NCBI GenBank assembly: GCA_017617415.1
Contig: JAFZWH010000093.1
Span: forward strand, 26,218 to 90,217
From: Victivallales bacterium
GTDB taxonomy: Bacteria; Verrucomicrobiota; Lentisphaeria; Oligosphaerales; Oligosphaeraceae
Length of the DNA stretch: 64,000 bases
Direction: 5' to 3'
This document shows positions 12,848 through 63,975 of this stretch, piece by piece. The notes beneath the pieces were generated by a model. It saw nothing but the letters and a program-made list of their open reading frames with translations. It made no database searches and was not told the origin of the DNA. The first letter of the stretch is position 1, and every line of letters begins with the position of its first letter. The translations under genes and the position numbers were made by a program.

Positions 12848-12909
12848 TTACAAGTCGAAGGTGAGCTGGTTGGGGTCGTGGTAGGGGCTGCGACGCCCGC
12901 GGCGCTTGG
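12848..12909 (-). pseudogene. Displaced duplicate of the mutS 3' end (last 20 codons plus stop)
   Basis: 60/62 nt identical to 13673-13734. It would encode KRRGRRSPYHDPNQLTFDL-stop, the same as the MutS C-terminus. No upstream mutS body is attached. Confidence 0.85.
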
Positions 12910-13672: not shown

Positions 13673-16231
13673 TTACAAATCGAAGGTGAGCTGGTTGGGG
13701 TCGTGGTAGGGGCTGCGCCGCCCGCGGCGCTTGGTTTCGGCGAGCTTCGGGCGCTTGGCGTCCTCTTCGTCGAATTCGTTGTTCTCCAGATTCGTGAGCA
13801 CCTGGTCGGCGCGGTCGATGACGATTTTCGGGATGCCGGCGAGCCGTGCGACGTGGATGCCGTAGCTCTTGTCAGCGGCTCCGGGCACGATTTTGCGCAG
13901 GAACATGATGCTCTCGCCCTCTTCCTTCACCAGCACGTTGTAGTTCTTGATGCCAGGCTTGGTGAGCGGGAGGTCGGTGAGTTCGTGGTAGTGCGTGGCG
14001 AAGAGGGTGCGGGCCTTGGCGGACGGGGTGTCGTGGAGGTATTCGGCGATGGCCCAGGCGAGCGAGAGGCCGTCGAAGGTGGAGGTGCCGCGGCCGATTT
14101 CGTCCAGGATGATGAGGCTCTGCGGGGTGGCGTGGTTGAGGATGTTGGCGGTCTCGACCATCTCGACCATGAAGGTGGACTGCCCGCGCGAGAGGTCGTC
14201 CGCCGCGCCGACGCGGGTGAAGATGCGGTCGGCCAGGCCGATAGTGGCGCTTGAGGCGGGAATGAAGGAGCCCATCTGCGCCATCAGGACGAGCAGCGCG
14301 ACCTGCCGGATGTAGGTGGATTTGCCCGCCATGTTGGGGCCCGTGATGAGGCCGATCTGCTGGTCGGTGGTGTTGAGCACGCAGTCGTTGGGCACGAAGG
14401 CCGAGCCCTCGGCGTGTGCGTCCAGCACGGGGTGCCGACCGTCCCGGATTTCGAGAATCGGCGTCTCGGCGATGGCGGGGCGGGTGTAGTTGTAGCGGAT
14501 GGCGTCCTCGGCGAGGGCTCCCAGGCAGTCGATGTTGGCGAGGGCGCGGGCGGTGGTCTGAATCACCGCAATCTGCTTCACGACGGCCTCGCGGAGCTGC
14601 CCGAAGAGCTCGAATTCGAGCGCCTGCGCCTTCTCGTCCGACCCCAGCACCTTGTCCTCGATTTCCTTGAGTTCGGGGGTGATGAAGCGCTCGCCGTTCA
14701 CGATGGTCTGCTTGCGCATGTACTCCGGCGGAACCAGGTCCAGGAAGGACTTGGAGATCTCGATGAAGTATCCGAAGACCTTGTTGAAGCGGACCTTCAG
14801 GGACTTGATGCCAGTGCGCTCCTGCTCCTTGAGCTGGTAGTTGGCAATCCAGTCCTTGCCCTCGGTGGAGGCTCTCCGCAGGAGGTCGAGGTCCGCATTG
14901 AAGCCGTCGCGAATCATCCCGCCGTCGTGGACGGCGACGGGCGGCTCGTCCACCACCGCCTTGGCGATGAGCTCCACCAGCTCGGGCTGTTCGGAGAGCT
15001 TCTCACATTCGTCCAGAAGCAGTCCCGCATGGGCGTTGTGCAGGATGGCCTTGAGGCCGGGGAGCTCCTCCAGACCGCGCCGCAGGACGATGAGGTCGCG
15101 GGCGGAGGCGTTGGTGCCCACGCTGAGGCGGGTGACGGTGCGCTCGATGTCGCGCACGGCGGAGAGAGTCTCGCGCAGTTCGGAGAGGAGCATCGGCTGT
15201 CCGGCGAGGTCCTCCACGGCATCCAGCCGCGCCTCGATGGCGGGCTTGGACTTCAGGGGACGCAGGACCCACTCGCGCAGGAGGCGTGCGCCCATGGGGG
15301 TGATGGTCTTGTCCAGCACGGAGATGAGGGTGTTGTCCTTGCCGTCGGCGAAGATGGGATCCACCAGCTCGAGGTTCCGCTGGGAGATGCGGTCGAGCAC
15401 GAGGCAGTCGTCGGACTGGTAGGAGGCGATGGCGGTGAGGTTCGCGGCGTCCTTGCGCAGGGTGTTCTGGGCGTAGTGGAGGATGGCGCCGGCCGCGCCG
15501 ATGGCGGGTTCGTAGCCGCGGCAGCCATAGCCGTCCAGAGACGCGACCTGGAAATGGCGCAGGAGGTCGCTTCGTGCCAATTCGACGTCAAAATGCCAGT
15601 CCTCCACGCTGGTCCAGACCAGCTGCTGCGGGAGGTCGGCAGGGAAGCCTTCGTTCTGCCAGCGCGAGAGCAGACTGGCGGGGGCCAGGCATTCGGCGGG
15701 CTTCAGGCGGTTGAGTTCGACCTCCAGCGCTCCGACGCCCATGGGGATTTCGGTGATGCGAAACTCAGCGGTGGAGAGGTCGAGCGAGGCCAGCCCCCAG
15801 CGGTTTTTCATCGGCAGAAGCGCCACGAGGTAGTTGCTGCGGTTGGACTCCAGCAGCGTGTCCTCCATCATCGTGCCAGGCGTGATGATTTCCGTGATGT
15901 CGCGCTTCACCAACCCCTTTGCCAGCTTCGGGTCCTCAATCTGGTCCGCCAAGGCGACCTTGTAGCCGCCCGCCAGGAGCTTCGGGACATACTGCCGAAC
16001 CGCGCGGTAGGGGATGCCGCACAACGGCGCGCCCGCTCGGCTGGTCAGCACGACGTCCATCAGCGGAGCGGCGATTTTGGCGTCCTCGAAGAACATCTCG
16101 TAGAAGTCGCCCATCCGGAACATCAGCAGCGTGTCCGGCGCGAGCTGGCGCTTCGCCTCGGCATACTGACGCATCCCCGGCGTGAGTTCGCCCGACAGGC
16201 TGGCGTTTTTGGTTGGTTTGGATTCAGACAT
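13673..16231 (-). CDS. mutS: DNA mismatch repair protein MutS
   Basis: 852 aa with TPGMRQY..FRMGDFYEMFFEDA at the N-terminus, Walker A GPNMAGKSTY, and DEIGRGTSTFDG. Confidence 0.95.
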   Translation of the reverse strand: MSESKPTKNASLSGELTPGMRQYAEAKRQLAPDTLLMFRMGDFYEMFFEDAKIAAPLMDVVLTSRAGAPLCGIPYRAVRQYVPKLLAGGYKVALADQIEDPKLAKGLVKRDITEIITPGTMMEDTLLESNRSNYLVALLPMKNRWGLASLDLSTAEFRITEIPMGVGALEVELNRLKPAECLAPASLLSRWQNEGFPADLPQQLVWTSVEDWHFDVELARSDLLRHFQVASLDGYGCRGYEPAIGAAGAILHYAQNTLRKDAANLTAIASYQSDDCLVLDRISQRNLELVDPIFADGKDNTLISVLDKTITPMGARLLREWVLRPLKSKPAIEARLDAVEDLAGQPMLLSELRETLSAVRDIERTVTRLSVGTNASARDLIVLRRGLEELPGLKAILHNAHAGLLLDECEKLSEQPELVELIAKAVVDEPPVAVHDGGMIRDGFNADLDLLRRASTEGKDWIANYQLKEQERTGIKSLKVRFNKVFGYFIEISKSFLDLVPPEYMRKQTIVNGERFITPELKEIEDKVLGSDEKAQALEFELFGQLREAVVKQIAVIQTTARALANIDCLGALAEDAIRYNYTRPAIAETPILEIRDGRHPVLDAHAEGSAFVPNDCVLNTTDQQIGLITGPNMAGKSTYIRQVALLVLMAQMGSFIPASSATIGLADRIFTRVGAADDLSRGQSTFMVEMVETANILNHATPQSLIILDEIGRGTSTFDGLSLAWAIAEYLHDTPSAKARTLFATHYHELTDLPLTKPGIKNYNVLVKEEGESIMFLRKIVPGAADKSYGIHVARLAGIPKIVIDRADQVLTNLENNEFDEEDAKRPKLAETKRRGRRSPYHDPNQLTFDL

Positions 16232-20275: not shown

Positions 20276-20368
20276 CCACCAGGAAGGTGAGAGGGTAAAG
20301 TCCCGTCTGTCCCAGAGGTCCCGCCTGTCCCGGGTACCAAGTAAACTTTACCCTTTACCCTTTCAACT

Positions 20369-21589
20369 TTAGACTTTCTTCGCCGCGGCGATGAAGCTGG
20401 CGCGGGAACGCTCGATGACCGCCTTGTCCACGCAGATGGCGATGCGGAAGTATCCAGCATAGCCGAAGCCGGAGCCGGGGACGGCGAGGACGCGCTCGTC
20501 GGCGAGTTTCTGGACAAAGGTCACGTCGTCCATGCCGTGCGGGGCCTTGGGGAAGAAGTAGAAGGTCCCGGCGGGCATCTGGAATTCGATGCCAGCCTCG
20601 GTGAGGATGTCCGCCATGATGCGTCGACGCTCGGCGTAGATGGCAAGCTGGTCGCTCTGGAGCTTGAGGGCGAGCTGGATGTCGGCGAGTCCTCCGATGA
20701 TGAGCTTCTGGCCGATGCAGGGTGAGTTCACGTAGCCGAGGATGCGGTTGGTGAGGATAAGTCCGGAGACCAGCTGCGCTGCGTCCTCTGTCCCCATGGC
20801 GGGGTTCACGGCGATGTAGCCGATGCGCTCGCCGGCGAGTCCGAGGTTCTTGGAGAAGGAGGAGCAGACCACGGAATATTCGTAGCGCGGAAGCACGGAG
20901 GGGACAGAGCATCCGTCGTAGGCCAGGAAGCGGTACGGCTCGTCCGCGATCAGCAGGATGGGCCGACCGTACTTCTGACTGGCCTTGCGGAGGATGGCGG
21001 CCAATGCGTCGATTTCGTCAGCGGTATAGACCACGCCGGCGGGGTTGTTCGGGGAGTTGATGAGCAAGGCGCGGGTCTTTTCGTTGATGGCCTCCGCAAT
21101 GCCTTCGATGTTCAGTTTGAAGGTGCCGGGCGCGGACTTGACGGGCTTGAGCACGCCGCCGTAATTTCCTACATACGAGCCGTATTCCACGAAATAGGGC
21201 GAGGGGCAGATGACCTCTTCTCCGGGCATCAGAATGGCACGGAAGATGCAGTTAAGTCCGCCGGCCGCGCCGACGGTGATGATGATGTTCGAGGCGGTCA
21301 TTGGCGCGCCCTGTTCGGCTTCGGTCCATTTCGCCAGCGCCTCGCGGGCGGCGGGGTAGCCCGCATTGGGCATGTAGCCCAGTCCGGCGGGGACATCCAC
21401 CTGGTCGGCGAGTCCACGCAGGGTGTCGATGACGGTGGCGGGCGGGTTGAGGTCTGGACTGCCGAGGCTGAAGTCATACACATTTTCGGCGCCGAATTGT
21501 TTTTTCATCTCGATGCCCGCCTCGAACATGCGGCGAATCCACGAGGAGCCCTTCTGGGCATTCAGAATTTGGTCGGAAACCAGTTGCAT
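20369..21589 (-). CDS. Class I/II pyridoxal-phosphate-dependent aminotransferase
   Basis: 406 aa with the SFSKNLGLAGERIGY PLP-lysine motif and NSPNNPAG. Confidence 0.9.
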   Translation of the reverse strand: MQLVSDQILNAQKGSSWIRRMFEAGIEMKKQFGAENVYDFSLGSPDLNPPATVIDTLRGLADQVDVPAGLGYMPNAGYPAAREALAKWTEAEQGAPMTASNIIITVGAAGGLNCIFRAILMPGEEVICPSPYFVEYGSYVGNYGGVLKPVKSAPGTFKLNIEGIAEAINEKTRALLINSPNNPAGVVYTADEIDALAAILRKASQKYGRPILLIADEPYRFLAYDGCSVPSVLPRYEYSVVCSSFSKNLGLAGERIGYIAVNPAMGTEDAAQLVSGLILTNRILGYVNSPCIGQKLIIGGLADIQLALKLQSDQLAIYAERRRIMADILTEAGIEFQMPAGTFYFFPKAPHGMDDVTFVQKLADERVLAVPGSGFGYAGYFRIAICVDKAVIERSRASFIAAAKKV

Positions 21590-21595
21590 TGTCGT

Positions 21596-23185
21596 TTATG
21601 GTTGAATTGGAGTTGGTTGGAATGGAAGTCGCTGAAGCAACCGCGCGAATTTCGCGTTGCGATGGTAAATCTTTGGGTAGTTGGGACTGCGCATGAAGGA
21701 TGGTTCCTCGCCGGTCTCGGCCTCCTGCTCCATCAGAGGCGCAATCTGCGCGAGGAATTGAGGATGTTCCTCACGTAGCAGAGAGGCGTGGGACTCAAGA
21801 AGCAAGATGGTGTTGTCGATTTTCTGAAGGCTCAGGCGTGGACTTCCCAAGTTGCTGCGGTGCTGCCGGATGAGACTAACGACATAATCCAGGTCGTGGT
21901 CGTCGTCGCGGATGAGCGCGTCATTGGCGGCGACCTCGAAGACTTTTGGATTTACGCGCTCGTTCCGCGCGATGAGGGTGTGCCAGAAGGTCTGGGTGTC
22001 GTGCCAGACATGCAGGTTCAGTTGCGTGGCTAACATCATCAACGCGATGAGGAAACATGCGACTAGACGGGTGGTATGGTTCTCCGGGATGATGAGGGAC
22101 AGACCGACGACTGCCACGACGGAGACGAGGTAGTTATAACGGTCGCAGTAGTCGAAGTTGGTGTAAACCCACATTCCAAGGACAGGGAGCATCGTCCCGC
22201 CCAGGATGAGTGCGCCGCCCAGCAACTTCGTCCAGGGAATGTGGCGGATGGCAAGCGCATACCAAAGCAGAGTGCCCAGGAGAAGCACGCCAATTAGGTA
22301 GAGTAACCAGTATTCCTTGAATCCCACAATATTGGGGTAGATGGGATTCACCCCGAAATTCGGCAGGACGGCGGTGAGCGGATACCAGAAGAGGTTGTGA
22401 AGCGGCACCGCCGGGGACCACGAGAAGATGCCTGGATTGGTCTGAGCGGTCATGTATGCCGACCAAACAGTCGCGACTAGACCGCAGAGCACGGGGATGA
22501 GTTGATCGGGACGCCACTTTCGCAAGGTGAGCGCATAGACCATGTAAATGCCTGCCAATGGCGCGGCGGCGGGTTTGGCGAAAATCGCCAGCGTGGTCAA
22601 AATTCCGCAAATAATACTATAACTAATTTGTTTCCAAACTGTTATAGTATCTATTAAAAAAAGGAACAGCAAGAATGCTGAAAAGGTGAAGAGACCGCAT
22701 AGGACATCTTTGCGTTCCGTAATCCACACCACGGACTCGCTTTTTTGTGGATTCACGCTCCAAAGCAACGCGGCGAGGAATGCCCAGGCGGGCGAGAGCT
22801 TGAGTTTGCGTGCGATCCAGTAGAGAAGTGCAGCGCAGAGCAGATGCAACGCAAGATTGTGGAGGTGGTAGGGAAGGGGAGTCGTGTGCCCGAAAAGAGC
22901 ATTGTCCGCCATAAGCGAGTACATCGGCAGTGGCGTGTAGAGGTCTTGAAAAGGGCGTGTGGCGTAGCGCCGAAGGTTCTTGGCGGTCCAGGAAAGATGT
23001 TGGTTCTCAAGGATAAAAATACCGTCATCCCAATGATCCAGAAATGGATAGTTTATCGCACGGACGAAATTCAGCGTGGTGATGAACAGTAGCGCCGCTA
23101 ACAAAAGAACCTCGCTCCGAACTCTGTGCCCGACCGCTGGCGGGGACGATGCAGTGTTCTCAGTTGTGGCATTGGCAGTTGGCAT
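21596..23185 (-). CDS. Polytopic membrane protein, TMTC/PMT-like GT-C glycosyltransferase candidate
   Basis: 529 aa with more than 10 TM helices. The first loop has FLDHWDDGIFILEN and NPQKSESVVWITERKDVL blocks resembling DUF1736/TMTC-type O-mannosyltransferases. The call is by eye. Confidence 0.6.
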   Translation of the reverse strand: MPTANATTENTASSPPAVGHRVRSEVLLLAALLFITTLNFVRAINYPFLDHWDDGIFILENQHLSWTAKNLRRYATRPFQDLYTPLPMYSLMADNALFGHTTPLPYHLHNLALHLLCAALLYWIARKLKLSPAWAFLAALLWSVNPQKSESVVWITERKDVLCGLFTFSAFLLFLFLIDTITVWKQISYSIICGILTTLAIFAKPAAAPLAGIYMVYALTLRKWRPDQLIPVLCGLVATVWSAYMTAQTNPGIFSWSPAVPLHNLFWYPLTAVLPNFGVNPIYPNIVGFKEYWLLYLIGVLLLGTLLWYALAIRHIPWTKLLGGALILGGTMLPVLGMWVYTNFDYCDRYNYLVSVVAVVGLSLIIPENHTTRLVACFLIALMMLATQLNLHVWHDTQTFWHTLIARNERVNPKVFEVAANDALIRDDDHDLDYVVSLIRQHRSNLGSPRLSLQKIDNTILLLESHASLLREEHPQFLAQIAPLMEQEAETGEEPSFMRSPNYPKIYHRNAKFARLLQRLPFQPTPIQP

Positions 23186-23303
23186 GACACCATACTTTAA
23201 TACCTAAAACCAATATACTATTGTGGCGACGGCCAATTTCCTCGTCGCATTAGTCCATTTCGAATAGAAACCAGATTTTGATACACGTGACTGTTTTGGC
23301 GTG

Positions 23304-23400
23304 GTCTGTCCCCGTGCTTTGATACACGTGACTGTTTTGGCGTGGTCTGTCCCCGTGCTTTGTGGTGCGCCGCGTTGGTCTGTCCCCGTGGTCTGTCCCC
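23304..23400 (+). repeat. Array A of decamer GTCTGTCCCC (4 direct copies)
   Basis: Copies start at 23304, 23345, 23378 and 23391, each preceded by TG(G). The first two lie in a perfect 41-bp tandem duplication (23280-23320 and 23321-23361). Confidence 0.9.
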
Positions 23401-23542
23401 TGAAAATCTCCTTGGGTAAGGACCAGCCTTTTCGTAAAAGCAATCGCTCGACACGCACAACAATGTGCGAAATCTGTGTTACATTGTGAGAAAGTTCTTT
23501 TTCATTGCCATAATCTACTTTTTCCATATCTGGAGATTCTTC

Positions 23543-25309
23543 ATGACCAAACTCGACCCGACCAAATTGGCTGACTGGCAGATTGCCGAGGCTGCCGAAG
23601 CCACCATGCTTGCCCCGCAACAACTCGCTGACAAGCTTGGACTTCTACCAGAAGAACTCATTCCCTGGGGACGCCAGCTCGCCCGCGTGGACCAACAGGC
23701 CATCCGCGCCCGCCTCGCCAACGCACCGCAGGCCAAGTACATCGATGTAACCGCTATCACCCCCACGCCACTTGGCGAAGGAAAGACCACCACCGCTATC
23801 GGACTGATTGACGGCCTCGCCAAGCGTGGACACCGCGTCTCCGGCGCCATCCGCCAACCTTCCGGCGGTCCCACTTTCAACATCAAGGGCTCCGCAGCCG
23901 GCGGCGGCTTGGCGCAATGTATCCCGCTGACCACCTTCTCCCTCGGCATGACCGGTGATATTGACAAGATCACCAATGCCCACAATCTCGCGATGGTCGC
24001 CCTCACTGCACGCATGCAACACGAGCGCAACTACGATGATGCCAAGCTAGCCGCCCGTGGCCTAAAGCGCCTTGACATCGATCCCGATCGCGTCGAGATG
24101 AAGTGGGTCATGGACTTCTGCGCCCAAGCGCTTCGAAATATCACCATCGGGCAGGGCGGCAAGATGGACGGCGTGCCGATGCAATCCGGCTTCGCCATCT
24201 CGGTTTCCAGCGAAATCATGGCAATTCTGGCTTTGGCACAGGACCTAAGAGACCTCCGCGAACGTATTGGACGCATCGTGGTGGCCTTCAGCCGCAGCGG
24301 CGCTCCAATCACTACCCATGACCTTGAGGTCGATGGCGCAATGACCGCATTCTTGGTGGACAGCCTGAACCCGACCCTTATCCAGACCCTCGAGGGGCAA
24401 CCCGTCCTCGCCCACGCCGGTCCCTTTGCGAATATCGCCATCGGGCAGAGTTCCGTAATCGCCGATCAGATTGGCGTGCGGACAAGCGAATACCATGTCA
24501 CAGAGAGTGGATTCGGCGCCGACATCGGTTACGAGAAATTCGTTAATCTCAAATGCCGTGCCTCCGGACTACGACCGGACGCCGTGGTGGTCGTGGCGAC
24601 CATCCGTGCCCTCAAGATGCATGGCGGTGGCCCCACGGTGAAGCCTGGCGCGAAGCTGGACGACGTCTATGTCCACGAGAATCTTCCGTTGTTGGAGAAG
24701 GGCTGCGAGAATCTCCTGGCGCACATCGAGATCGTGAAGAAGACCGGCATTCAGCCGATTGTTTGCCTCAACCACTTCTACACCGACACCCCCGAGGAAC
24801 TCAAGCTTGTTCGCAAGATTGCCGAGGCGGCAGGCGCCCTGGTGGCGGTCTCTCAGCACTGGCTGAAGGGTGGCGAGGGTGCGCTGGAGCTGGCAGAGGC
24901 GGTTGAGGAGGCCACTCGTCGGCCGCACGCCTTGAAGTTCATTTACGAGAATACGCAGCCAGTGAAGGAGCGCATCGCTGCGATCGCCCATGAGGTCTAT
25001 GGCGCCGGCGAAGTCACCTACTCGCCCGAAGCCGAGGCGAAACTCCAGCTCATCGCAAACGACCCCGCGCTGGCCAAGCAGTGCATCTGCATGGTCAAGA
25101 CTCACCTGAGTCTCTCCGCCGACCCGGATGTGAAAGGTCGTCCGCGAGGCTTCACCCTCCCCGTGCGAGACATCCTGCTCTATCAGGGCGCAGGCTTCAC
25201 CGTGCCGGTCACCGGCGACATCAAGTTGATGCCCGGCACCTGCTCCGACCCCGCCTTCCGGCGCATCGACGTTGATGTCGTGACTGGCAAGATCAAGGGA
25301 ATGTTCTAA
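23543..25309 (+). CDS. fhs: Formate-tetrahydrofolate ligase
   Basis: Motifs [23 protein letters not shown] and HGGG, with length about 588 aa. The start is taken at MTKLDPTKL (ATG 23543). Confidence 0.95.
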
Positions 25310-25312
25310 ACT

Positions 25313-25696
25313 GTGAACTGGCTTCTCTGCGATATCAACGAGACCCTCGCATTTCAGTCAGAGGGCGTGGACTGGCATACCGACTGGTGGAAGGTGCTCA
25401 TCATTGCCTTCGCGGCATTGCTCTTCCTGGCCTTGCTATTGCGTCTCTCCCTCTACATCATGCGGATTGTCGGCGTCGCCCTCTGCGTTGCGGTAGGGTG
25501 CGCCGGCGGCTGGATCGCCAAGGGACTGCTCAGTGAAGTCATCGCACAGAACCTTCCTGAATCCGCCGAGCCGTATGCACCGCTCGCCAGCGGACTCATC
25601 GGATTCCTGCTCTGCTTTGGAATTGCAGCATTTATCATGACGCTTATCCGCCGAACCGCCCGTCCGCAGCCCAAGCCCAAGACGGAGGAGAAGTGA
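25313..25696 (+). CDS. Hypothetical small membrane protein (3 TM)
   Basis: 127 aa with three hydrophobic helices. It starts 4 nt after the fhs stop and overlaps the yigZ start by 4 nt, which suggests operon coupling. No family was recognised. Confidence 0.55.
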   Translation: MNWLLCDINETLAFQSEGVDWHTDWWKVLIIAFAALLFLALLLRLSLYIMRIVGVALCVAVGCAGGWIAKGLLSEVIAQNLPESAEPYAPLASGLIGFLLCFGIAAFIMTLIRRTARPQPKPKTEEK

Positions 25697-26289
25697 AGGC
25701 ACTTGTCTCCGCCACTCCATTCACGCTGATCGTCAAGAACTCGCGCTTTATCGCCGAGCTCTTGACGGCGGACTCTGCAGAAGTGGCACGAGCACTCCTG
25801 ACCACCCAGCGAGAAAAATACCCCGATGCCTCGCATGTGGTTCATGCACTATCAATTGGTCCCACCGCCGGGGTGCTGGGATGCTCCGATGACGGCGAAC
25901 CTGCCGGCACCGCCGGGCGGCCGGTTCTGGAGATCCTCAAGGGATCTGGCACCACCAATGTCTTGCTGACAGTCACTCGCTGGTTCGGCGGGACCAAATT
26001 GGGGACCGGCGGGCTGGTCAAGGCGTATGGCGATGCCGCGAAGGGCGTGCTGGCAACTGCGGTCACCTGCGAGATTGTCGATATGGCGCAATTCGCTTTT
26101 ACCCTGCCATACCCCATCCTGGAGGCCGGCAAACGACTGCTGCGTGACAATGCCTTCGTCATCCGGACGGAGACCTATACCCCCGAAGGAGACGCCATTC
26201 AAGGTGAACTTCCAGCCAGTCAAGGGGATGCGCTCATGCGCCTTCTTGCCGACCTCTCCCGCGGACAAATCGCCATCGAACGAAAATGA
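25693..26289 (+). CDS. yigZ: YigZ/IMPACT-family protein
   Basis: KNSRFIA, DDGEPAGTAGRPVL and TRWFGGTKLGTGGLVKAY are hallmark UPF0029 motifs. Confidence 0.85.
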   Translation: MKALVSATPFTLIVKNSRFIAELLTADSAEVARALLTTQREKYPDASHVVHALSIGPTAGVLGCSDDGEPAGTAGRPVLEILKGSGTTNVLLTVTRWFGGTKLGTGGLVKAYGDAAKGVLATAVTCEIVDMAQFAFTLPYPILEAGKRLLRDNAFVIRTETYTPEGDAIQGELPASQGDALMRLLADLSRGQIAIERK

Positions 26290-26446
26290 ATGGTCGCCCC
26301 GGTGGAGAATTTCCGAGGATTTCCTGCAAAAATATGCGCCTTGTACTGGAAATTCCTCGAAAATCTATTACTGTACAAATAATTCTATCATTTCCTAGAA
26401 AATTCTTGGATTTTTCCGGCGGCCGCCCGGATTTTTCTGCATTGCC

Positions 26447-28012
26447 ATGACCACCCTGACCGTTGATAGCCATGTCTTCAGCAAGCTCATTTATGAGCGC
26501 TCGGTGATTTTGGTGTCCACGGCGGATCGAATGCTGACCGGTGGGGCGGAAGCCTTCCAGCTTACTAGGCCGCTTCTGGGCGTGCTGCTCCAGGAGTCTA
26601 CCCAACTGGAAGAACTATTGGATGCATACGGCGCACGTATCAACCAGCAATGGTTCCCCTTCCGGCTGCATGTGGCTACTATTAAGAACTTCAGTACCGC
26701 TGGCTACGAGCTGCTGCACCTGCGGTCCACCATCCAGAATTATGACTTCCAGGGCACGCACCCGCATTTCCGTAGTGCCACGGAAGACGCCATCGATTTC
26801 GTGGCTTCTTTCATCTTCTGCTCGCTCCATGGATTGCTGGAAGATACCAAGCAATTTGGATGGCCGCCGCCTGAGGCGCTTCATGGATATGACTTTACCG
26901 AGAATCTCCCGGCCGGCCGGCTCCCTAAAAATCGCACTATCACCAGCCCCACCTCCGCCCAGCAGCTGGTCATCAACCTCGCGACCGATTTCCTCAACAA
27001 CACCGAGGATGCCAAATTCCTTGACAATGCGGACAAATGCCGCGCCCCCGACTGGAATGGGCTCAACTTCGACCTCCTTACCGAAACCACCTTTCTCATT
27101 CTGGAGGGAAAGTTCCACACCATGCAGTCGCTATACGACACCTATATTTCATTCAGCGACATTGAGGGCGCGGACACCTCTTTGCGTGCTCTGCGCGGAC
27201 ACATCAGCGTGGTGCTCCACCTCCTGAAGATCGCGACGATTTTTATCCATTTCTACGAGCGCCACCTCAAGGTGCAAAGCCATGAGCTCTTTTGCCACGA
27301 ACACTGCGTGCTGGAAGGGAATTGGTATATGGAGGTGCTTACCCACTACCTCTGCCATTACGCATACGAATTCCTGACCAGTGCCCGCGGACTGTGCCAG
27401 CACATGCTGCAACACTATGCGGTCATTGAGACCCGCGAGGTGCCTGTTCCACCCTACTTCGGTTTCCACGTGCGACCTTCCGCCCTGGTCTCTGCCATTG
27501 TACGTCACTACGGGGGAAAAGTCATGCTAATCCTTGATCGGGAGTATGATGCAGGAGCACCGATGAATCTTTTCCTTGTCAACGAGTGGGTGAATCAGCT
27601 TAAGCGCCAGCACGTCGGAGAGGAACTACACAAGATGGACGAGCTTCTACGGGAGACACAGACGCAGCTCGACAGTGGCAAAATCACAAAAGTCACTGCC
27701 GTACGCAATATCATACGTGCGCTGGCGCAACACGATGTCATCAACGTCCTAAAATACCCGTTGAATGTCGAACCCATCATCAATAGCTCCAGCGCACCCA
27801 CTCTGCTGGAACTCATGCAGACTATCGTGGCAACCTTGCTGGCCCAGCGTGAACTCAATATCATCTACCCTATCAAAGTCAAGTTCCGCGGTGATGCACG
27901 AGTTCTTAAGGACATTGAAATCCTCGCCGCTAACGGCTATGGGGAAAACGAGACGGGCTCCAACATCCCGTTGCCGCCGGAACTTACCTATTTGACCTTT
28001 TCGCGAGGATAA
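26447..28012 (+). CDS. Hypothetical 521-aa protein with C-terminal interrupted HPr-like domain
   Basis: Residues ~330-380 (PYFGFHVRPSALVSAIVRHYGGKVMLILDREYDAGAPMNL) match the HPr N-terminal half, including the active His. Residues ~476-500 (IKVKFRGDARVLKDIEILAANGYGE) match the HPr C-terminal half. About 90 aa are inserted between them. The N-terminal ~330 aa are unrecognised and His/Cys-rich. Confidence 0.55.
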   Translation: MTTLTVDSHVFSKLIYERSVILVSTADRMLTGGAEAFQLTRPLLGVLLQESTQLEELLDAYGARINQQWFPFRLHVATIKNFSTAGYELLHLRSTIQNYDFQGTHPHFRSATEDAIDFVASFIFCSLHGLLEDTKQFGWPPPEALHGYDFTENLPAGRLPKNRTITSPTSAQQLVINLATDFLNNTEDAKFLDNADKCRAPDWNGLNFDLLTETTFLILEGKFHTMQSLYDTYISFSDIEGADTSLRALRGHISVVLHLLKIATIFIHFYERHLKVQSHELFCHEHCVLEGNWYMEVLTHYLCHYAYEFLTSARGLCQHMLQHYAVIETREVPVPPYFGFHVRPSALVSAIVRHYGGKVMLILDREYDAGAPMNLFLVNEWVNQLKRQHVGEELHKMDELLRETQTQLDSGKITKVTAVRNIIRALAQHDVINVLKYPLNVEPIINSSSAPTLLELMQTIVATLLAQRELNIIYPIKVKFRGDARVLKDIEILAANGYGENETGSNIPLPPELTYLTFSRG

Positions 28013-28827
28013 AGGTTGGCATCGACGATTGACGCGGTGGACTCCGAGCCTGACGATTGACGCCTTTCATACCATATAGCATAGGTTTGACTGCAGAGGT
28101 CCAATGACCACAACGGGTCACCTTCATGGTCAAGTCCAAGATAACGGCTATAGGAATATTGTCCACGTTTTCGCAGACGTTGCTTCAAAAGGCGTATTTC
28201 GTTCTGGGTTCCTAACGCAAAATGACCGGAATACTTGACACTGTGGCTGGCCGCAACTATCGCTCTTCGCCCCTGTTGACGTTCCATCAGTTTCCGCTGC
28301 CAATCCAAGAACTCTTTGATGGACTGCATTTTGAGTGTATTCACAAGTAGCGCACGATCCACAATGGATACTTCGGCATCGCAATTTTGCAATTCATGGT
28401 AGGAACAGTATTTCCAGTGAATTGGATCCATGCCTTGTTGATGGTTGAGGGCATTTGCATCAATATAGGATATGACATTCTTGAAATGTGATGATGTGCC
28501 GATATGCGTAGAAGAAAATCGGTCGCGCCAAAAGTGCCCTTTTATCCCATTTACTCGGTTGAAGTGCTGGGCCATCCGGCCAGCCAGAGATTGCATTGCA
28601 CGACTGACCCGAGTAACATCGGCTCCGACTTTGACCAGTAAGTGAATATGGTTCTTCATAATGCAATAACCAAGAACAAGCAGACCGAATTTTGCAATGA
28701 CCTCCTTGAGCAACCAAAGATAGTATTCACGCATTTCTTCACTCTCGAACAGAAATTTCTGCCATTCGCATTGCTGGGTGATGTGGATGAAACTCTCGCT
28801 TTGCAGATTGCGCGCACGTCGTGCCAT
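27988..28827 (-). CDS. IS200/Y1-transposase-like protein (RAYT-like)
   Basis: HUH motif NHIHLLV, a GHFWRDRF block and a Tyr motif YIDANAL, as in REP-associated tyrosine transposases. There is an extra ~100-aa C-terminal extension. The gene is AT-richer than its surroundings. Confidence 0.7.
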   Translation of the reverse strand: MARRARNLQSESFIHITQQCEWQKFLFESEEMREYYLWLLKEVIAKFGLLVLGYCIMKNHIHLLVKVGADVTRVSRAMQSLAGRMAQHFNRVNGIKGHFWRDRFSSTHIGTSSHFKNVISYIDANALNHQQGMDPIHWKYCSYHELQNCDAEVSIVDRALLVNTLKMQSIKEFLDWQRKLMERQQGRRAIVAASHSVKYSGHFALGTQNEIRLLKQRLRKRGQYSYSRYLGLDHEGDPLWSLDLCSQTYAIWYERRQSSGSESTASIVDANLYPREKVK

Positions 28828-29096
28828 ATGACCTCCTTTTATTACGAGACTGCTTTAGGCAAATTCGTCACCTTAGTTATTGCAAACCAGACCATCTATA
28901 GGTATCCATTCTGGTAAGAATCAAAACAATGATTGATTAGCCAAATGAATGGACTACCGCAAAAAGTGGGCATTTGGGAAAACTATATCTTTCCCCTTGA
29001 AAAAAGCTATTTGCTCCAGCGCAAATCTCTGAAATTGAGAATCGTTATAAATTTATATATAAGCATTGGAGAAATTATAAAAACAGCAATGGCTTG

Positions 29097-29291
29097 GGGA
29101 CAGACGCAAGGAGCCAGTCGTTTCCCATGGGGACAGACGCCAAAATATGGCGACAGACAACAGGTGGGGATAAACCTCGAAATAGACACCGAAAACATCA
29201 ATTTGTCTCAGCATCCTATCTCTCTCAATCGTACCAAGTTGAGATAGGGACAGACATCGAAAGGGGAAAGGACGAAATAAGGGGGACAGAC
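29097..29291 (-). repeat. Array B of decamer GTCTGTCCCC (read as GGGGACAGAC on plus strand; 5 copies plus degenerate ones)
   Basis: Plus-strand GGGGACAGAC at 29097, 29129 and 29282. GGCGACAGAC at 29149. AGGGACAGAC at 29246. Weaker AATAGACACC-type copies occur near 29181 and 29299. Confidence 0.9.
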
Positions 29292-29458
29292 GCCCCAAAA
29301 TAGACACCCCAAAATAGCATGAATAACATAGGGCGGTCTTTCCGCACAATATGTTTGCTCCATGCGATAAAGTTGTCCAAAGTTGTCCAAAGGTTTCTAA
29401 AATTATGCTATATTATACAAATTACAACAGTTTTGTCTATTTATAAGGAAAAACAACT

Positions 29459-31555
29459 ATGAATCGTACTGTTACTTTGGACAAAGTCCGAAATATCGGC
29501 ATTATGGCGCATATCGACGCGGGCAAGACGACCTGCACCGAACGCATTCTTTATTATACGGGGCGCACGCACAAGTTGGGCGAGACGCATGACGGCTCGG
29601 CGACGATGGACTTCATGCCGGAGGAGCGCGAGCGCGGCATCACCATCCAGAGTGCGGCCACGACCTGCGTCTGGCACGAGAACATGATCAACATCATCGA
29701 CACTCCCGGCCACGTGGACTTCACCGTGGAGGTCGAGCGCTCGCTGCGCATCCTGGACGGCGCGATCGGGCTCTTCTGCGCGGTCGGCGGCGTGGAACCG
29801 CAGTCCGAGACGGTCTGGCACCAGGCCACCAAATACAACGTCCCCCGCATCTGCTTCGTGAACAAGATGGACCGCACCGGCGCGGACTTCTTCGCGGTCG
29901 TGGAGCAAATCCACGATGTGCTGGGCGCCAATGCAGTGCCAGTCTGCATCCCGATGGACCAGGGACCCGATTTCCACGGCATCATCGACCTGGTCAAGAT
30001 GTGCCAGGTGCGCTATGTCGAGGACCCCAAAGGCACCTATCCCGTGGACGAACCGCTTGCGGAAGATTACCGCGACTACGCCGAGAAGTGGCGCAAATAC
30101 CTCATCGAGGCCGCCGCCGAACTTGACGACACGCTGATGGACAAGTACCTCTCCGACGAACCCATTGAGGAGTCCGAACTCATCGCGGCCGTCCGTCAGG
30201 GCACCCACCAGCAGAAAATTTTCCCCGTGCTCTGCGGAACCGCCTTCCGCAACAAGGGCATCCGCAGGTTGCTCAATGCGGTGGTGGACTACCTCCCCAG
30301 CCCGCTCGACCTCCCCGCCGCCACCGGCACCCTCCCCGACGGCTCGACCGCCGAGCGTCCTGCCGACGACAATGCGCCAACCACCGCGCTGGCCTTCAAG
30401 GTCGTCAGCGACAACGCCGTGGGCAAACTGGTCTATGTGCGCGTCTATTCGGGCAAACTCGAATCGGGGACCTATATCTACAACTCCACCAAGAAGAAGC
30501 AACAGCGCATCGGGCGCATCTTCCGGATGCACGCGAACCACCAGGAGATCATCGACACCCTTTTCGCGGGAGAAATCGGCGCACTCGTCGGGCTTGCGGA
30601 CACCGTGACCGGCGACACCCTCTGCACCGAAGACGCCCCCATCGCGCTGGAGAACATCTCCTTCCCCACGCCCGTCATCTCCATCGCCGTCACTCCGAAG
30701 TCCCATGCGGACCGCGACAAACTGATGATCGCCTTGGGCAAACTCGCCGAAGAGGACCCCACCTTCACCGTGCGCGTGGATCCCGAGACCGAGGACACTG
30801 TGATTTCGGGCATGGGCGAACTGCATTTGGACATCATCCTCACCCGCCTGAAGCGCGAGTTCAAGGTCGAGGTCGTCTCCGGTGCCCCTGAAGTCGCCTA
30901 CCGTGAGACCATCGGCAAGAAGTACTCCCACGAAGAGCGCCTCAAGAAGCAGACGGGCGGTCATGGGCAATTCGCGCACATCCTCTTTGACATCGAACCG
31001 CAGGAGCCCGGCGCGGGCTACGAGTTCGTCAACGAGGTCAAGGGCGGCGACATCCCGAAGGAATACATCCCCGCCATTGAGAAGGGCTTCAAGGAGGCGA
31101 TGGAGGCTGGTCCCAAGTGCGGATGCCCCTGCGTGGACTTCAAGATCACCCTCACCGATGGCTCGTTCCACCCTGTGGACTCCTCCGAGATGGCCTTCCG
31201 CGCCTGCGCGGTCGCGGGCTTCAAGACCGCCTTCGCGAAGGCCGACCCCGTGCTGCTGGAGCCGATCATGAAACTCACCGTTTCCACACCGGAGGAATAC
31301 GCCGGCTCCATCACTGGAAACCTCTGCGGGCTTCGCGGGCAGGTTCAGGGCATGGAGAAGGTCGGACGCAACCAGCAGATTCACGCGCTCGTTCCCCTCT
31401 CAAACCTCTTCGGCTATACCAGCATCCTGAGAAATATGACCCAAGGCCGCGCCGGCTTCAATATGGAATTCGCCTACGATGCGCCCGTGCCCGCCGCTAT
31501 TGCCGAAAAGGTCGTCGAAGAACGCCGCAAGCAACGCGCCGCGCAAGGCAAATAA
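29459..31555 (+). CDS. fusA: Elongation factor G
   Basis: 698 aa with [17 protein letters not shown] and NKMD, plus full EF-G domain-length collinearity. It stands alone, with no rpsL/rpsG/tuf neighbours. Confidence 0.95.
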
Positions 31556-39276: not shown

Positions 39277-39570
39277 TTAGTAGCTGCCGCCAAACATGGG
39301 ACCGGAGGGGCCGTCCTGAAACATGGGGCCGGATGGACCGTCCTGAAGCATGGGGCCGGATGGGCCGTCCTGAAGCATGGGGCCGGATGGGCCGTCCTGA
39401 ACCTTGCGTTTGCGGAGCGCCTTTTCATAAGGTGATGGACATGAGTGTTTTTTGGAAGAAACGAAGGTCTTTTGTGCGCCGACTTTACGGGCAGTCGGCT
39501 TTACGGTAACAATGAGATGCTGCGTTTCGCCCAGTTCAAACAGCGCTAAATCACGTGGGACATTCAACAT
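39277..39570 (-). CDS. Small protein with four nonapeptide repeats (x-QDGPSGPM)
   Basis: 97-aa ORF. Its ATG overlaps the stop of the upstream GT4 gene (ATGTTGA). The 27-nt repeat units are in frame, and the differences inside the units are synonymous in this frame. Confidence 0.5.
   Translation of the reverse strand: MLNVPRDLALFELGETQHLIVTVKPTARKVGAQKTFVSSKKHSCPSPYEKALRKRKVQDGPSGPMLQDGPSGPMLQDGPSGPMFQDGPSGPMFGGSY
39295..39402. repeat. 4 x 27-bp tandem repeat
   Basis: Units CATGGG(A/G)CCGGA(G/T)GG(G/A)CCGTCCTGAA(A/G/C) at 39295, 39322, 39349 and 39376. Confidence 0.9.
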
Positions 39571-45167: not shown

Positions 45168-46913
45168 GTGATCGGTCAAGAAGAATTCATCGTAGATCTG
45201 CTCATCTCCCGCGGTGTGATCACCAACGAGCAAGTCGAGGACGCCAAAAAGAAAATGGCAGAGGGGGACGAAGATTCCGTCCTGAACGCCCTCTATGCCC
45301 TGCGCATCATTACGGAACAGCAAGTCATGCGTGTGCTGGGCGACGAGTACGGGATGGAGACCTATGACTTCGACAGCGCCAAGCAACATGTGCCAGAGCA
45401 GATCATCGCCATGATCCCCAACCAGATTGCTCTGCGCTACCACATGGTTCCGCTCTCCTTCGCAAATGGCATCCTCAAGGTCGCCATGTCCGACCCCGCC
45501 GACATCGAGTCGCTGGACGCCGTGCGACATCTGACTGGACTGGACGTCGAAGGCGTCCTGACTCCCCAGCGTCAGTTGGAGCGCGCCCTGGAGTTCTACT
45601 ACAAGCGTGAGGACGCCACGGACATCCTCCAGGAAGTCACCGAAACCACCACCGATGTCACGCTTGCCTCGACCACCGACTCCACGATGGACGCCACCCA
45701 AGACGCCACCCAGGACGCAACCATCGACTCCGACGGCAAGAACTCAAACGACATTGCCCCCATCATCCGCTATGTCTCGCTGGTCATCATCGAGGCATTC
45801 CGTTCCCGCGCATCGGATATCCATCTGGAACCCCTGGAGAAGAAATTCCGCGTGCGCTACCGCATCGACGGCGTGCTCAACGAGGTCGAAGCACCGCCCA
45901 AGTATCTCCAGAACAAAATCCTGTCGCGCCTGAAGTTGATGAGCGGCATGGATTTGTCTGAGCATCGAATCCCGCAGGACGGGCGAATCCGCATCACCGC
46001 GATGGGTCGTGACCTGGACTTGCGTGTGTCGGACATCCCCTGCACGCACGGCGAATCCATCGTCATGCGTATCTTGGACAAAAGCGGCGTCATGCTGGGT
46101 ATCGGAGAATTGGGATTCATGCAGGACGACCAGGATCTGATCTACAAAATCCTACAGATGCCGGACGGCATCTTCCTGGTCACCGGCCCGACCGGTTCCG
46201 GCAAGACCACCTCGCTGTACTCCTTCCTGCACGAACTCAACCAGCCCACCCGCAAGATCATTACCGCCGAGGACCCGGTGGAATACGAGCTCTCCGGCAT
46301 CAACCAGGTTCAGGTGAACACCGATGTCGGCCTTACCTTCGCCGCCGCGCTGCGCGCCATGTTGCGTCAGGCCCCGAACATCATCATGGTCGGTGAAATT
46401 CGTGACTCGGAGACTGGCTCCATCGCCATCAATGCGGCTCTGACGGGGCACTTGGTCTTCAGCACCCTGCACACCAACGACGCGCCGTCCGCCATCACCC
46501 GTCTGATCGATATGGGCATCAAGCCCTTCCTGGTCGCCTCTTCCCTGCGCGCCATCATGGCGCAGCGACTTGTCCGCCGCCTCTGCAAGCACTGCAAGAA
46601 GGAGCACATTGTCACCGAATCCGAGATGCAGGGGCTGGACATCACCCCCGAATACGTGGCGAAGTCCACCTTTATGGAGCCAGCGGGCTGCTCCGAGTGC
46701 AACAAGGGCTATCGCGGACGTATGGGCATCTACGAAATCTTCATGCTCGATCCCGAGGTCGAGAACATGATCTACCAGAAAGCGGACGCCGGTGTTATCG
46801 CCCGCCACGCCCGCTCCCATGGCATGCGCAACTTGCGCGACGACGGAATCCGCAAGGCCGCCATGGGCATCACTTCCATCAACGAGGTGCTTCGCCTCAC
46901 CGTCTCCGAATAG
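45168..46913 (+). CDS. GspE/PilB-family secretion ATPase, copy 1
   Basis: T2SSE_N-like N-terminus, Walker A GPTGSGKTTSL and a tetracysteine CKHCKK...CSECNKGYRGR. A T/D-rich linker (TTTDVTLASTTDSTMDATQDATQDAT) is present. The start is proposed at GTG 45168, with GGAGA 7 nt upstream. ATG 45081 is the alternative. Confidence 0.85.
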   Translation: MIGQEEFIVDLLISRGVITNEQVEDAKKKMAEGDEDSVLNALYALRIITEQQVMRVLGDEYGMETYDFDSAKQHVPEQIIAMIPNQIALRYHMVPLSFANGILKVAMSDPADIESLDAVRHLTGLDVEGVLTPQRQLERALEFYYKREDATDILQEVTETTTDVTLASTTDSTMDATQDATQDATIDSDGKNSNDIAPIIRYVSLVIIEAFRSRASDIHLEPLEKKFRVRYRIDGVLNEVEAPPKYLQNKILSRLKLMSGMDLSEHRIPQDGRIRITAMGRDLDLRVSDIPCTHGESIVMRILDKSGVMLGIGELGFMQDDQDLIYKILQMPDGIFLVTGPTGSGKTTSLYSFLHELNQPTRKIITAEDPVEYELSGINQVQVNTDVGLTFAAALRAMLRQAPNIIMVGEIRDSETGSIAINAALTGHLVFSTLHTNDAPSAITRLIDMGIKPFLVASSLRAIMAQRLVRRLCKHCKKEHIVTESEMQGLDITPEYVAKSTFMEPAGCSECNKGYRGRMGIYEIFMLDPEVENMIYQKADAGVIARHARSHGMRNLRDDGIRKAAMGITSINEVLRLTVSE

Positions 46914-48727: not shown

Positions 48728-49837
48728 ATGCCTAAATTAGAAATGGCCGACCTCCTGGACTTGGTGCTGCAGGAAGGTGCCTCCGACCTTCATTTGCCCT
48801 GCTTCTCCCCGCCGGTTTTGCGCATCCACGGCGAACTCACTCCGCTGGATGTTCCGCCGATGCAACCGGAGGACACCGAATACCTGATGAAGTCCATCAC
48901 CTCCGAGGCCAACCAGCAAAAACTCCAGCAGGACGGTACGGTGGACTTCGGCTTCGCCTTTGGCGAACGCGCCCGTTTCCGTGTTTCCGCTTTCCGTGCC
49001 CGTGGCAACATCGCGATGGTTCTGCGAACCATTTCCAACGACCTGCTCACCCTGGAGCAGATTGGTTTGCCCAATGCGTGCAAGGACATCCTTTTCCGGC
49101 CTCGCGGCCTGGTTTTGGTCACTGGACCTACTGGCTCCGGCAAGTCCACCACTCTTGCCTCGATGATCGACGTCATCAACCATGAGAAGAAAGACCACAT
49201 CATCACCATCGAGGACCCGATTGAGTTCTACCATTCCAGCGTCAACTGCGTCATCACCCAGCGCGAGGTACACAACGACGTGCCTTCCTTCGCAGACGCC
49301 ATCCGCCGCGCATTGCGACAGGACCCCGATGTCATCCTGGTCGGTGAAATGCGTGATAACGAGACCATCTCGGCCGCCATCACCGCCGCCGAAACCGGTC
49401 ACTTGGTCTTTGGCACCCTGCATACCACTGGCGCCGCCGAAACCATCGACCGTATCGTGGACTCCTTCCCCACCAACCAGCAGGCGCAGATCCGTACCCA
49501 GCTGGCCTCCACGCTGATCTGCGTAATCTCGCAGTTGTTGCTCAAGCGCAAGGACAAGAAGGGGCGTATCGCGGCTTTTGAAATCATGGTCACCACGCCG
49601 TCCATTCAGGCACTAATCCGCGATGGCAAGACCTTCCGAATCACCTCTGACATCCAGACCGGTGCCAAATACGGCATGAATACGCTGGACACGCACCTCA
49701 TCCGCCTCTACAACGAAGGCAAGATCTCCTATGGTGACCTGATCACCAAGTCCCGCGACCCGGAAGGCGTTCAGCAGAAACTGCACCAGATGCTCATGGA
49801 GCAGGGCGCCGTCGGCGGGCAGCAAGTCAAGAAATAA
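48728..49837 (+). CDS. pilT: PilT-family retraction ATPase
   Basis: 369 aa with [22 protein letters not shown] and [10 protein letters not shown]. It lacks the GspE N-terminal domain. Confidence 0.9.
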
Positions 49838-62922: not shown

Positions 62923-63543
62923 GGATTACGCAGATACCGATGCTTTTTCAAAAAAGGTCTTGGAAGGCTTGGCGAAAATGGACCCGGGACAATCGGTCTC
63001 GCCAGGCCGTCAGGTTTGCAGGTTTTAGGCAGGCTGTTAAGTGTCCAGTTGGGAGACATGGCAGTGATTAAATTAATAACTTGTTGTTAATCAACATGTT
63101 ATCTAATTAATTCGTCCCCGGTTGCAAGATGACAAACGCTTCGCCCAAAGTTGACACCATGCTTAGCTGGAGAATGGGAAACCTTATAATCACACATCCA
63201 AGAATGATGCTACAACAAGTTGGACAAAAGCAAGAACTGACACTTTTTCCTACAGACGGGAATCGACATGAGAGACCAAGCCATTGCGGACTCACAAAGA
63301 GCGAAATCACAGTGCATTAAAAAACACGACCACGCGATGAAGCTATCGCCCAGAACTGTCAGGCCGGCTGAGATGATGGGTTTGCAAGTGACTCATGAAA
63401 TGCGAAGAGGCACAAAAGCAAGCATCCAATGGTTTTTGTGTCATATCCTTGAACAAAACTATACAATATAATCTTTTCCCAGCTTTTCAAGTTCATCGCT
63501 CATACCTCGACCTCGATTAAGAATTCAGCGTCAAGAATTCAGT

Positions 63544-63827: not shown

Positions 63828-63975
63828 GATGGGGCATTGAAATAGGTTTGACAGGCGTAGATTTCCGGTGCTGGACCAGGCACTTTTGAGTTTTGGGGTT
63901 GCAAATTGCTTTTCAGCAACTATATTAAGAAACTTGCTGTTATCAATTACCGCAACAATTGAGGAAATAACGACC

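Follow-up and report, generated by a model that had tools for sequence, protein, structure and literature searches.

Why should one ten-nucleotide word be repeated again and again in the DNA beside the gene of a RAYT-like tyrosine (Y1) transposase, and is it the product of that gene to which the repeats belong? The question is raised by a 64,000-nucleotide stretch of contig JAFZWH010000093.1 from a Victivallales bacterium (the window, as we call the whole stretch analysed here), in which the decamer GTCTGTCCCC is gathered into three intergenic arrays, A, B and C, with array B lying between the RAYT-like gene and fusA. We suggest that the three arrays are probably clusters of the cognate DNA element of the Y1 protein encoded beside array B, a protein of the TIRYT branch. 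The system is one of the TIRYT/Group 1 RAYT repeat class, known but little studied and found here in a new phylum, and it is not a canonical hairpin-forming repetitive extragenic palindromic (REP) system.

Three arrays of one decamer

With at most one mismatch allowed, the decamer has 24 matches in the window, against 4.27 ± 1.99 expected from shuffled sequences (maximum 11; a count of 24 is attained in 0 of 100 shuffles). The three arrays contain all 13 exact copies, and the seven single matches in genes (at most one mismatch) equal the chance expectation. With up to two mismatches, 20 of the 74 matches are concentrated in 3.2% of the window (2,042 nt). Array A (23277-23400, + strand), upstream of fhs, holds four exact decamers and includes a perfect 41-nt tandem duplication (23277-23317 and 23318-23358). 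Array B (29096-29291, - strand) occupies the divergent intergenic region between the Y1_Tnp gene (27988-28827, -) and fusA (29459-31555, +), and is made of five head-to-tail copies, three of them exact (29096-29105, 29129-29138 and 29282-29291) and two with one mismatch (29149-29158 and 29246-29255). It also holds two degenerate copies of GTCTATTT on the same strand: GGTGTCTATTT at about 29180-29190, which aligns to an intact decamer of array C, and GGTGTCTATT at 29299-29308, at the edge towards fusA. Array C (63544-63827, +), with eight decamers of which six are exact, lies upstream of a promoter-like site for rpmH. Arrays A and C are 5.7 kb and 34 kb from array B, the orientation of the three arrays alternates (A +, B -, C +), and all three occupy divergent intergenic regions containing promoter-like sites. 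A literature search for the exact decamer returned eukaryotic primers and promoters only. Between array C and the rpmH promoter-like site (63899-63926) there is also a terminator-like hairpin (63867-63884, +), followed by T-rich sequence as far as about 63894; with the promoter-like site at 63438-63467 as the other boundary, a transcript over array C could be delimited.

An earlier note on this DNA had proposed that arrays B and C are homologous copies of a composite unit of roughly 70 bp, with the same spacing of 20 and then 32 bp between their first copies. In both arrays the copies are direct repeats set head to tail, with variable spacers of 13-97 nt. Of the starts given for array B on the minus strand, 29158 and 29138 are correct and the third is 29105, not 29106, so that the first step is 20 in both arrays, whereas the second is 33 in B and 32 in C. 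The shared sequence between copies is real: a 34-nt module with two decamers, TGTCTGTC(G/C)CC-N10(..GGC)-GTCTGTCCCCATG, occurs in array B at 29159-29126 (-) and in array C at 63543-63576 (+), with 79% identity. Moreover, in a formal alignment the best match places 29255-29124 of array B (-) on 63687-63833 of array C (+) with a score of 54, compared with 35.3 ± 4.6 when the spacers alone were shuffled (2 of 500 shuffles reach 54). The common layout runs from a decamer through an imperfect hairpin and a CTGAGACAA-TGATG-TTTT block to three more decamer positions. Because this spacer homology is significant, we take arrays B and C to have a common origin instead of having arisen as separate clusters of a short word. 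The homology proposed by the note thus stands, although not as a clean 70-bp unit, since it extends over about 130-147 nt with the 34-nt module in addition.

The Y1 gene beside array B

The gene at 27988-28827 (-), the only Y1 gene in the window, encodes a RAYT/TIRYT-like HUH tyrosine (Y1) protein of 279 aa. It matches Pfam Y1_Tnp (E 2.5e-14), its NHIH motif (59-62) and Y121 are intact, and N59, H60, H62 and Y121 are invariant across the aligned relatives. A profile of the family searched against the PDB had Escherichia coli TnpA-REP (4er8) as its top match (E 1.1e-7), and the same structure (4er8_A, E 1.1e-7) was the top Foldseek match of an AlphaFold2 model whose mean predicted local distance difference test score (pLDDT) was 86 with a 34-sequence alignment, a 10-sequence alignment having given an unusable 55. 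The C-terminal tail of about 150 aa is conserved and carries a ..LG(S/T)..F/I.. block; for the C-terminal half (approximately residues 140-260) we found no Pfam family at E ≤1 and no known fold among the Foldseek PDB matches listed.

As had been noted earlier, array B lies on the same strand as this gene, ending 269 nt upstream of its start at 28827, and there is no array on the other side of the gene, none being found in 27700-28100 even at up to two mismatches. The 3' end of the Y1 gene overlaps by 25 nt a convergent gene for a 521-aa protein (26447-28012, +) that has no Pfam or NCBIfam match, and the absence of a 3' array reflects a lineage with this overlap. In the orthologous loci L127, L128 and L216, recovered like the others compared here from other metagenomes, the two genes are still convergent, with a gap of 8-55 nt, and in relatives at 86% and 66% identity the Y1 gene is still syntenic with the genes for the 521-aa protein, Impact_N and fhs. 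A promoter-like block (29020-29082, -) separates array B from the Y1_Tnp start, with a CATAAT/TATAAC -10-like hexamer, largely conserved and recognisable at all four orthologous loci. Two further observations concern this neighbourhood. The 521-aa gene is held in a fixed block with the Impact_N gene, a gene for a 127-aa membrane protein and fhs, and its pairing with the RAYT-like gene is lost in L123, where an Mrr_cat gene follows. Also, a sigma-70-like site at 29412-29439 (-), matching the consensus at 11 of 12 positions, stands beside the start of fusA and is aimed through array B at the RAYT-like gene.

Association of motif and protein across bacteria

Is the proximity of array and gene peculiar to this genome? 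Two sets of loci, one chosen by the motif and the other by the protein, bear on this. The motif-first set took one genome per species and required two exact decamers 3-33 nt apart, giving at least 120 loci of 8 kb each. Of the 120 listed loci, 29 proved in an iterative protein search to encode a homologue of the window protein, and in 19 of these 29 (many of the 19 being related Collinsella genomes) the homologue gene is bracketed by inverted decamers, with GGGGACAGAC upstream and GTCTGTCCCC downstream in the direction of the gene. Such bracketed genes occur in Solibacter, Halioglobus, Ectothiorhodospiraceae, Thiodiazotropha, Noviherbaspirillum and Vibrio, two sulfur-oxidising symbionts included. 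The protein-first set consisted of 80 metagenome loci picked by a peptide pattern and tblastn alone. In these, GGGGWSAS occurs near the Y1 genes at 1.27/kb in forward orientation within the upstream 500 nt and at 0.88/kb in reverse orientation downstream, against a background of 0.14-0.15/kb in distant DNA and 0.37/kb and 0.13/kb in the wrong orientations, an enrichment of 6-9 fold in the expected orientation. Furthermore, when k-mers were ranked de novo in the flanks (upstream sequence plus the reverse complement of downstream sequence), GGGACAG came first, in 25 of the 80 loci, followed by GGGACAGA, GGGGACAG and GGACAGAC; the GGGGACAGAC of the window contains GGGGACAG and so fits GGGGWSAS. 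Because the motif-first and protein-first tests agree, we conclude that the core of the window decamer is the conserved flank motif of this family of Y1 proteins.

The link between RAYT-like genes and arrays, suspected earlier from the window alone, is thus a property of the family, seen in the inverted decamers at homologues in many phyla, in the 6-9 fold enrichment and in the top-ranking k-mer. Among the relatives examined there were no syntenic arrays without the RAYT family: those with syntenic arrays all still carry the gene, and their motif varies together with the species. Long head-to-tail arrays among the matches listed were those of Treponema (more than 25 copies with a 22-23 nt period) and Stieleria (21 nt period), and others of this kind came from Muribaculaceae, Coriobacteriia, Chthoniobacteraceae and Burkholderiales. 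In the termite gut Treponema sp. Kf353_bin92, more than 25 copies of GAGGTCTGTCCCC(G/T)TTTAG... lie at L073 4650-5380, L033 7000-7340 and L021 340-580, which are several contigs of one metagenome-assembled genome; no Y1 gene was found within these 8-kb loci.

Variation between strains and species

The arrays change on a short time scale. L121 and L122 are of the same species as the window (99.8-99.9% identity), and the 41-nt unit that is present twice in array A of the window is present once in L122. In another species, sampled three times with flanks 100% identical, the array upstream of the gene has two, five or three units of 24 nt. Arrays therefore gain and lose units of 24-41 nt between near-identical strains.

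Between species, it is the motif itself that changes. The window, L128 and L216 use GTCTGTCCCC; L123 and L124 use GCCTGTC[CA]CC, in four arrays within 12.8 kb; and L127 uses GACTGTCACC (a variant also given as GGTGACAGTC) in its array upstream of the RAYT-like gene as well as in the one upstream of fhs. The relatives carry several arrays per 10-13 kb, and every related species has its own motif variant in all its arrays. Such a genome-wide concerted change of the motif, as in REP/RAYT systems, speaks for active homogenisation of the repeats or for recognition that evolves together with them. The orientation of the array relative to the RAYT-like gene varies: in the window, L128 and L216 it points the same way as the gene, whereas L124 and L127 have it the other way round. 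In L123 arrays also lie between convergent and between co-directional genes.

Rearrangements at the arrays

All three arrays of the window lie at synteny breakpoints with respect to sister genomes. L128 follows the window forward over 20285-23246 and then in reverse from 29084 down to 24435; L216, an independent assembly, follows it forward over 21091-23244 and then in reverse from 28837 down to 26716. In both, an array stands where the two parts meet, so that the sequence to the left of array A is connected to the flank of array B that faces the RAYT-like gene, and therefore the 5.8-kb segment between the two arrays (23246-29084), from fhs to the RAYT-like gene, is, as judged from the contigs, inverted in them relative to the window. 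In L213 the sequence to the left of array C, where a 532-aa gene lies, is joined through an array to the leader of fhs, which in the window is found on the right of array A. The assemblies L214 and L215, whose fusA genes are 93% identical at the nucleotide level, have rpmH and fusA divergent and 188 bp apart with no decamer between them, and because the two genes are direct neighbours there, the right flank of array C and the distal flank of array B are adjacent. Two inversions between inverted arrays would call for just such an alternation, A(+)/B(-)/C(+). The A/B inversion junction was found in two independent assemblies with different array sequences, and the array-free junction, which is free of repeats, was also found in two. 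It would be tempting to regard arrays A and B as the ends of a composite transposon of five genes; this idea is not supported, since the two flanking arrays of L127 are direct and not inverted.

A possible mechanism

We propose that the Y1 protein would recognise the motif and nick and rejoin DNA there, as the IS200/IS605 transposases and TnpA-REP do on single strands at replication forks. Nicking and rejoining would give rise to new copies and homogenise the repeats of a genome, after which local slippage would expand or contract the arrays. Arrays A, B and C, being of opposite orientation, would serve as substrates by which the DNA between them is inverted, and binding beside its own promoter might allow the Y1 gene to be autoregulated. 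The catalysis, the form of DNA recognised, any regulatory role and mobilisation by the protein are all inferred, with the IS200/IS605 and TnpA-REP enzymes as the precedent for the nicking and rejoining.

If this is right, the largest and least understood group of RAYTs would have a concrete DNA partner, with a GGGACAG core that appears here as GGGGACAGAC, where two surveys gave no REP-like partner for RAYT Group 1. It also extends the TIRYT repeat class to Lentisphaerota, and shows that spirochaetes, planctomycetes, Bacteroidota and Coriobacteriia have the same core in long arrays with a head-to-tail arrangement. Moreover, it ties arrays to copy-number variation between strains and to inversion breakpoints around the housekeeping genes fhs, fusA and rpmH. 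Such arrays break short-read assemblies and may mislead synteny analysis.

Comparison with known systems

RAYT-like genes with terminal inverted repeats on their flanks in place of GTAG REPs encode the proteins named TIRYT, and the units are named TIRtrons; GGGGWSAS is common to many of these repeats (Di Nocera 2013, PMC3733652), which form moderately abundant families arranged as dimers or clusters (PMC3733652). Most TIRYTs fall in TnpAY1 subclass 2.1, which corresponds to RAYT Group 1 of Bertels (Quentin et al. 2018, PMC6006769). The consensus around subclass 2.1 genes is GGGG[AT][CG]A[CG], which is unlike the DnaA box despite the DnaA_C-like tails of the proteins (PMC6006769), and no REP-like structures were reported around these genes (Quentin et al. 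2018, PMC6006769). The 16-mers flanking Group 1 genes have only about 12 copies genome-wide (Bertels et al. 2017, PMC5581495), and 16-mer searches would largely miss a core of 10-13 nt such as that of the window.

The likeness of the window to the TIRtrons is close in several respects. Its RAYT-like Y1 gene, with HUH motif and tyrosine, is paired with repeats that are not of the GTAG type; the repeat core GGGGACAG fits GGGGWSAS; the repeat family is moderately abundant and clustered in intergenic DNA; and inverted flanking copies occur at homologous loci (19 listed). Unlike in a TIRtron, the copies in the window run head to tail with spacers of 13-97 nt instead of forming one long inverted repeat, and the host phylum (Lentisphaerota, Victivallales) is new. 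With subclass 2.1/Group 1, the window protein shares its length (279 aa, against a median of 238), an NH[VIYF]H HUH motif and a conserved C-terminal tail, and its gene is likewise single copy (in the 64-kb window) and largely vertical in inheritance, with conserved synteny. The proteobacterial homologues found through the decamer carry the exact signatures NHVH, WE and YIELNP, whereas the window protein has NHIH, FWRD and YIDANA where the subclass has NHVH or NH[YF]H, W[EQ] or FQ, and YIELNP or Y[IV]HLNP. The nearest relatives outside the Victivallales have YIDLNMVRAG.

The REP systems, including their composite forms BIME (bacterial interspersed mosaic element) and REPIN, resemble the window in that the closest solved structure to the window protein is 4ER8, E. 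coli TnpA-REP, in that a single-copy domesticated Y1 gene goes together with a dispersed intergenic repeat family, and in that there are composite arrays whose species-specific repeat variant changes along with the protein. However, the window repeat has no imperfect palindrome of 20-40 nt or stable hairpin, it lacks the 5' GT[AG]G tetranucleotide, there is no hairpin foot (the conserved core being GGGACAG), and the copies within its arrays are direct and not alternating. REPs are placed mostly 3' of genes (PMC3733652), whereas the arrays of the window lie in 5' divergent regions. The IS200/IS605 insertion sequences (IS608 and ISDra2 TnpA) share the HUH/Tyr Y1 catalytic fold; unlike them, the window has a single-copy gene without subterminal hairpin ends and without tnpB, encoding a protein twice as long. 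A CRISPR is disfavoured, given the core of 10 nt (not 24-48 nt), the irregular spacing of 13-97 nt and the spacers common to different arrays. Thus, the local peculiarities of the window are a one-sided, reversed, head-to-tail array, and arrays at inversion breakpoints beside housekeeping genes.

Evidence against the proposal

Several points weigh against the view that the arrays are the cognate element of the Y1 protein. Only one of the three arrays in the 64-kb window adjoins the Y1 gene; unlike in a TIRtron, this array is on the 5' side only, and it is reversed relative to the canonical upstream repeat. The protein scores 53.8 bits against NCBIfam REP_Tyr_transpos (NF047646), under the cut-off of 80, and it has YIDANA where Y...NP is usual (as well as WR in place of W[EQ]). 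Unlike in subclass 2.1, no helix-turn-helix (HTH) domain was found in its tail, neither Bac_DnaA_C nor HTH_23 nor HTH_28, by Pfam or among the listed Foldseek matches, the sole HTH trace being a weak HTH_23 match (E 0.062) in the tail of a Collinsella homologue. PMC3733652, PMC6006769 and PMC5581495 report no biochemistry for TIRYT or Group 1 proteins. The relatives are short-read metagenome contigs, which may be mis-joined at repeats, and ordinary homologous recombination between repeats, without any help from the protein, could cause the rearrangements.

Folding gives a similar result. Array B as single-stranded DNA has no significant fold on either strand (z = -1.53 and -1.50), in accordance with the expectation from the earlier note that the motif is not palindromic; this is typical of TIRYT/TIRtron repeats and not of canonical REPs (PMC3733652, PMC6006769). 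For the sites of the family the median z is -0.43, slightly better than the -0.04 of controls, and single units do no better, with a median of -0.26. Four or more pairs forming a stem across the core were found in 66% of family sites, 65% of window units and 45% of controls, and single-unit folding yielded a weak mini-stem, GGxG-ACAGA-CxCC; pairing counts in a fixed register over 79 family sites gave no clean helix. A REP-like hairpin was rejected because array B and the single units gave this weak mini-stem only, and because the units have no convincing hairpin, a hairpin-dependent mechanism like that of IS608 is not supported. Start-to-start spacings of the decamer peak near 23, 33 and 43 nt, in steps of about 10 nt, in a histogram that the search pattern confines to 13-43 nt and to which related Collinsella genomes contribute most. 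The mini-stem and the spacing steps point in different directions, to a single-stranded and to a double-stranded reading of the site, respectively, and neither is strong. Elsewhere the core takes other forms. In L104 (3250-3450, from a Burkholderiales metagenome-assembled genome) and in L065, the decamer occurs as perfect palindromes, GGGGACAGACC-N4-GGTCTGTCCCC, which are true REP-like hairpins, so the core is used as a hairpin in some lineages and as a direct repeat in others. Some copies in L127 (3012-3031 and 6042-6061) are GGTGACAGTCACC, a perfect 13-nt palindrome, one of them in the region of the Impact_N and 521-aa genes, which hints that the site might be read as a symmetric duplex by a dimer.

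Alternative explanations

The arrays might instead act in double-stranded form, as operator- or enhancer-like clusters of binding sites for the domesticated Y1 protein itself or another factor that tune the promoters of fhs, rpmH, the RAYT-like gene and fusA, with copy number as a dial and with dispersal and rearrangement as side effects. This explanation, which overlaps in part with the one we favor, we regard as unlikely, but worth a serious hearing. The position of every array in a divergent, promoter-containing region speaks for it, as does their location upstream of promoter-like sites (fhs, 23486-23514; rpmH, 63899-63926; and the -10-like block at 29020-29082), even if these promoter calls are consensus matches only; further points in its favour are the spacing in steps of about 10 nt, subject to the bounded and Collinsella-dominated histogram just described, and a GGGACAG core conserved across phyla while the proteins are only about 25% identical. 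L127 keeps an array in the same orientation upstream of fhs despite another motif variant and another outer neighbour; however, orientation relative to the RAYT-like gene varies, arrays in L123 also lie away from divergent promoters, and the rpmH-fusA region of a close relative (L214/L215) works without any array. A bolder version, rather improbable in our judgement, is that the Y1 protein is a sequence-specific DNA-binding or nicking factor that no longer spreads repeats: its GGGACAG core would have been frozen across at least eight phyla, and the arrays would be both variable-number operators upstream of promoters and programmed recombination sites flipping segments such as the 5.8-kb cassette from fhs to the RAYT-like gene.

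The location of array C could suggest something quite different, namely a replication origin with a cluster of DnaA boxes, of which arrays A and B would be secondary clusters. Classically, rpmH is found beside oriC and dnaA, the intergenic region is long, at 1,054 nt, with an AT-rich stretch, and one copy, CTGTCCACA, matches TTATCCACA at 7 of 9 positions. Yet no dnaA lies on either side of rpmH, in a search that reached 8.5 kb beyond the window; the decamer motif flanks Y1 genes in many phyla; GGGG[AT][CG]A[CG] is unlike DnaA boxes (Quentin et al., PMC6006769); rpmH of the close relative adjoins fusA without an array; and the GC skew of the window, which just tracks gene orientation, is uninformative. 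With no dnaA nearby, a motif unlike TTATCCACA and its family-specific occurrence at Y1 genes, we reject a DnaA-box cluster, and an origin of this kind seems scarcely credible. A role of the arrays as transcribed RNA, such as that of a sponge or of structured elements in leaders, is also very unlikely. A near-consensus promoter-like site on the minus strand, TAGACA-16-TATAAT (29439-29412), does point into array B, and a promoter-like site (63438-63467) and a terminator-like hairpin (63867-63884) bracket array C, but an Rfam scan of the window returned two tRNAs and nothing else, neither strand has a significant fold, and the inverted flanks around the gene of a DNA-processing enzyme point to recognition at the level of DNA.

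Other features of the window

Just upstream of the TATATT -10-like box before fusA there is a tandem, TTGTCCAAAG TTGTCCAAAG (29381-29400, +), which is kept in L214 (4930-4950) as TTGTCA-N5-TTGTCA; from its position it may be a promoter or operator element of fusA. At 39292-39426, in a region of overlapping open reading frames (ORFs), a 27-nt tandem repeat, AAACATGGGGCCGGATGGGCCGTCCTG, occurs in four to five copies, mostly about 91% identical, and may be a coding repeat of nine residues. A 62-nt direct repeat, 97% identical between 12848-12909 and 13673-13734 (825 nt apart), begins with TTACAA where two ORFs end, and these neighbouring genes seem to have a C-terminal coding end in common. Finally, three paralogous Walker-A ATPase segments in tandem genes (46160-46552, 47936-48328 and 49099-49184; 72-85% and then 65% identical) resemble paralogues of the type II secretion or type IV pilus ATPases.

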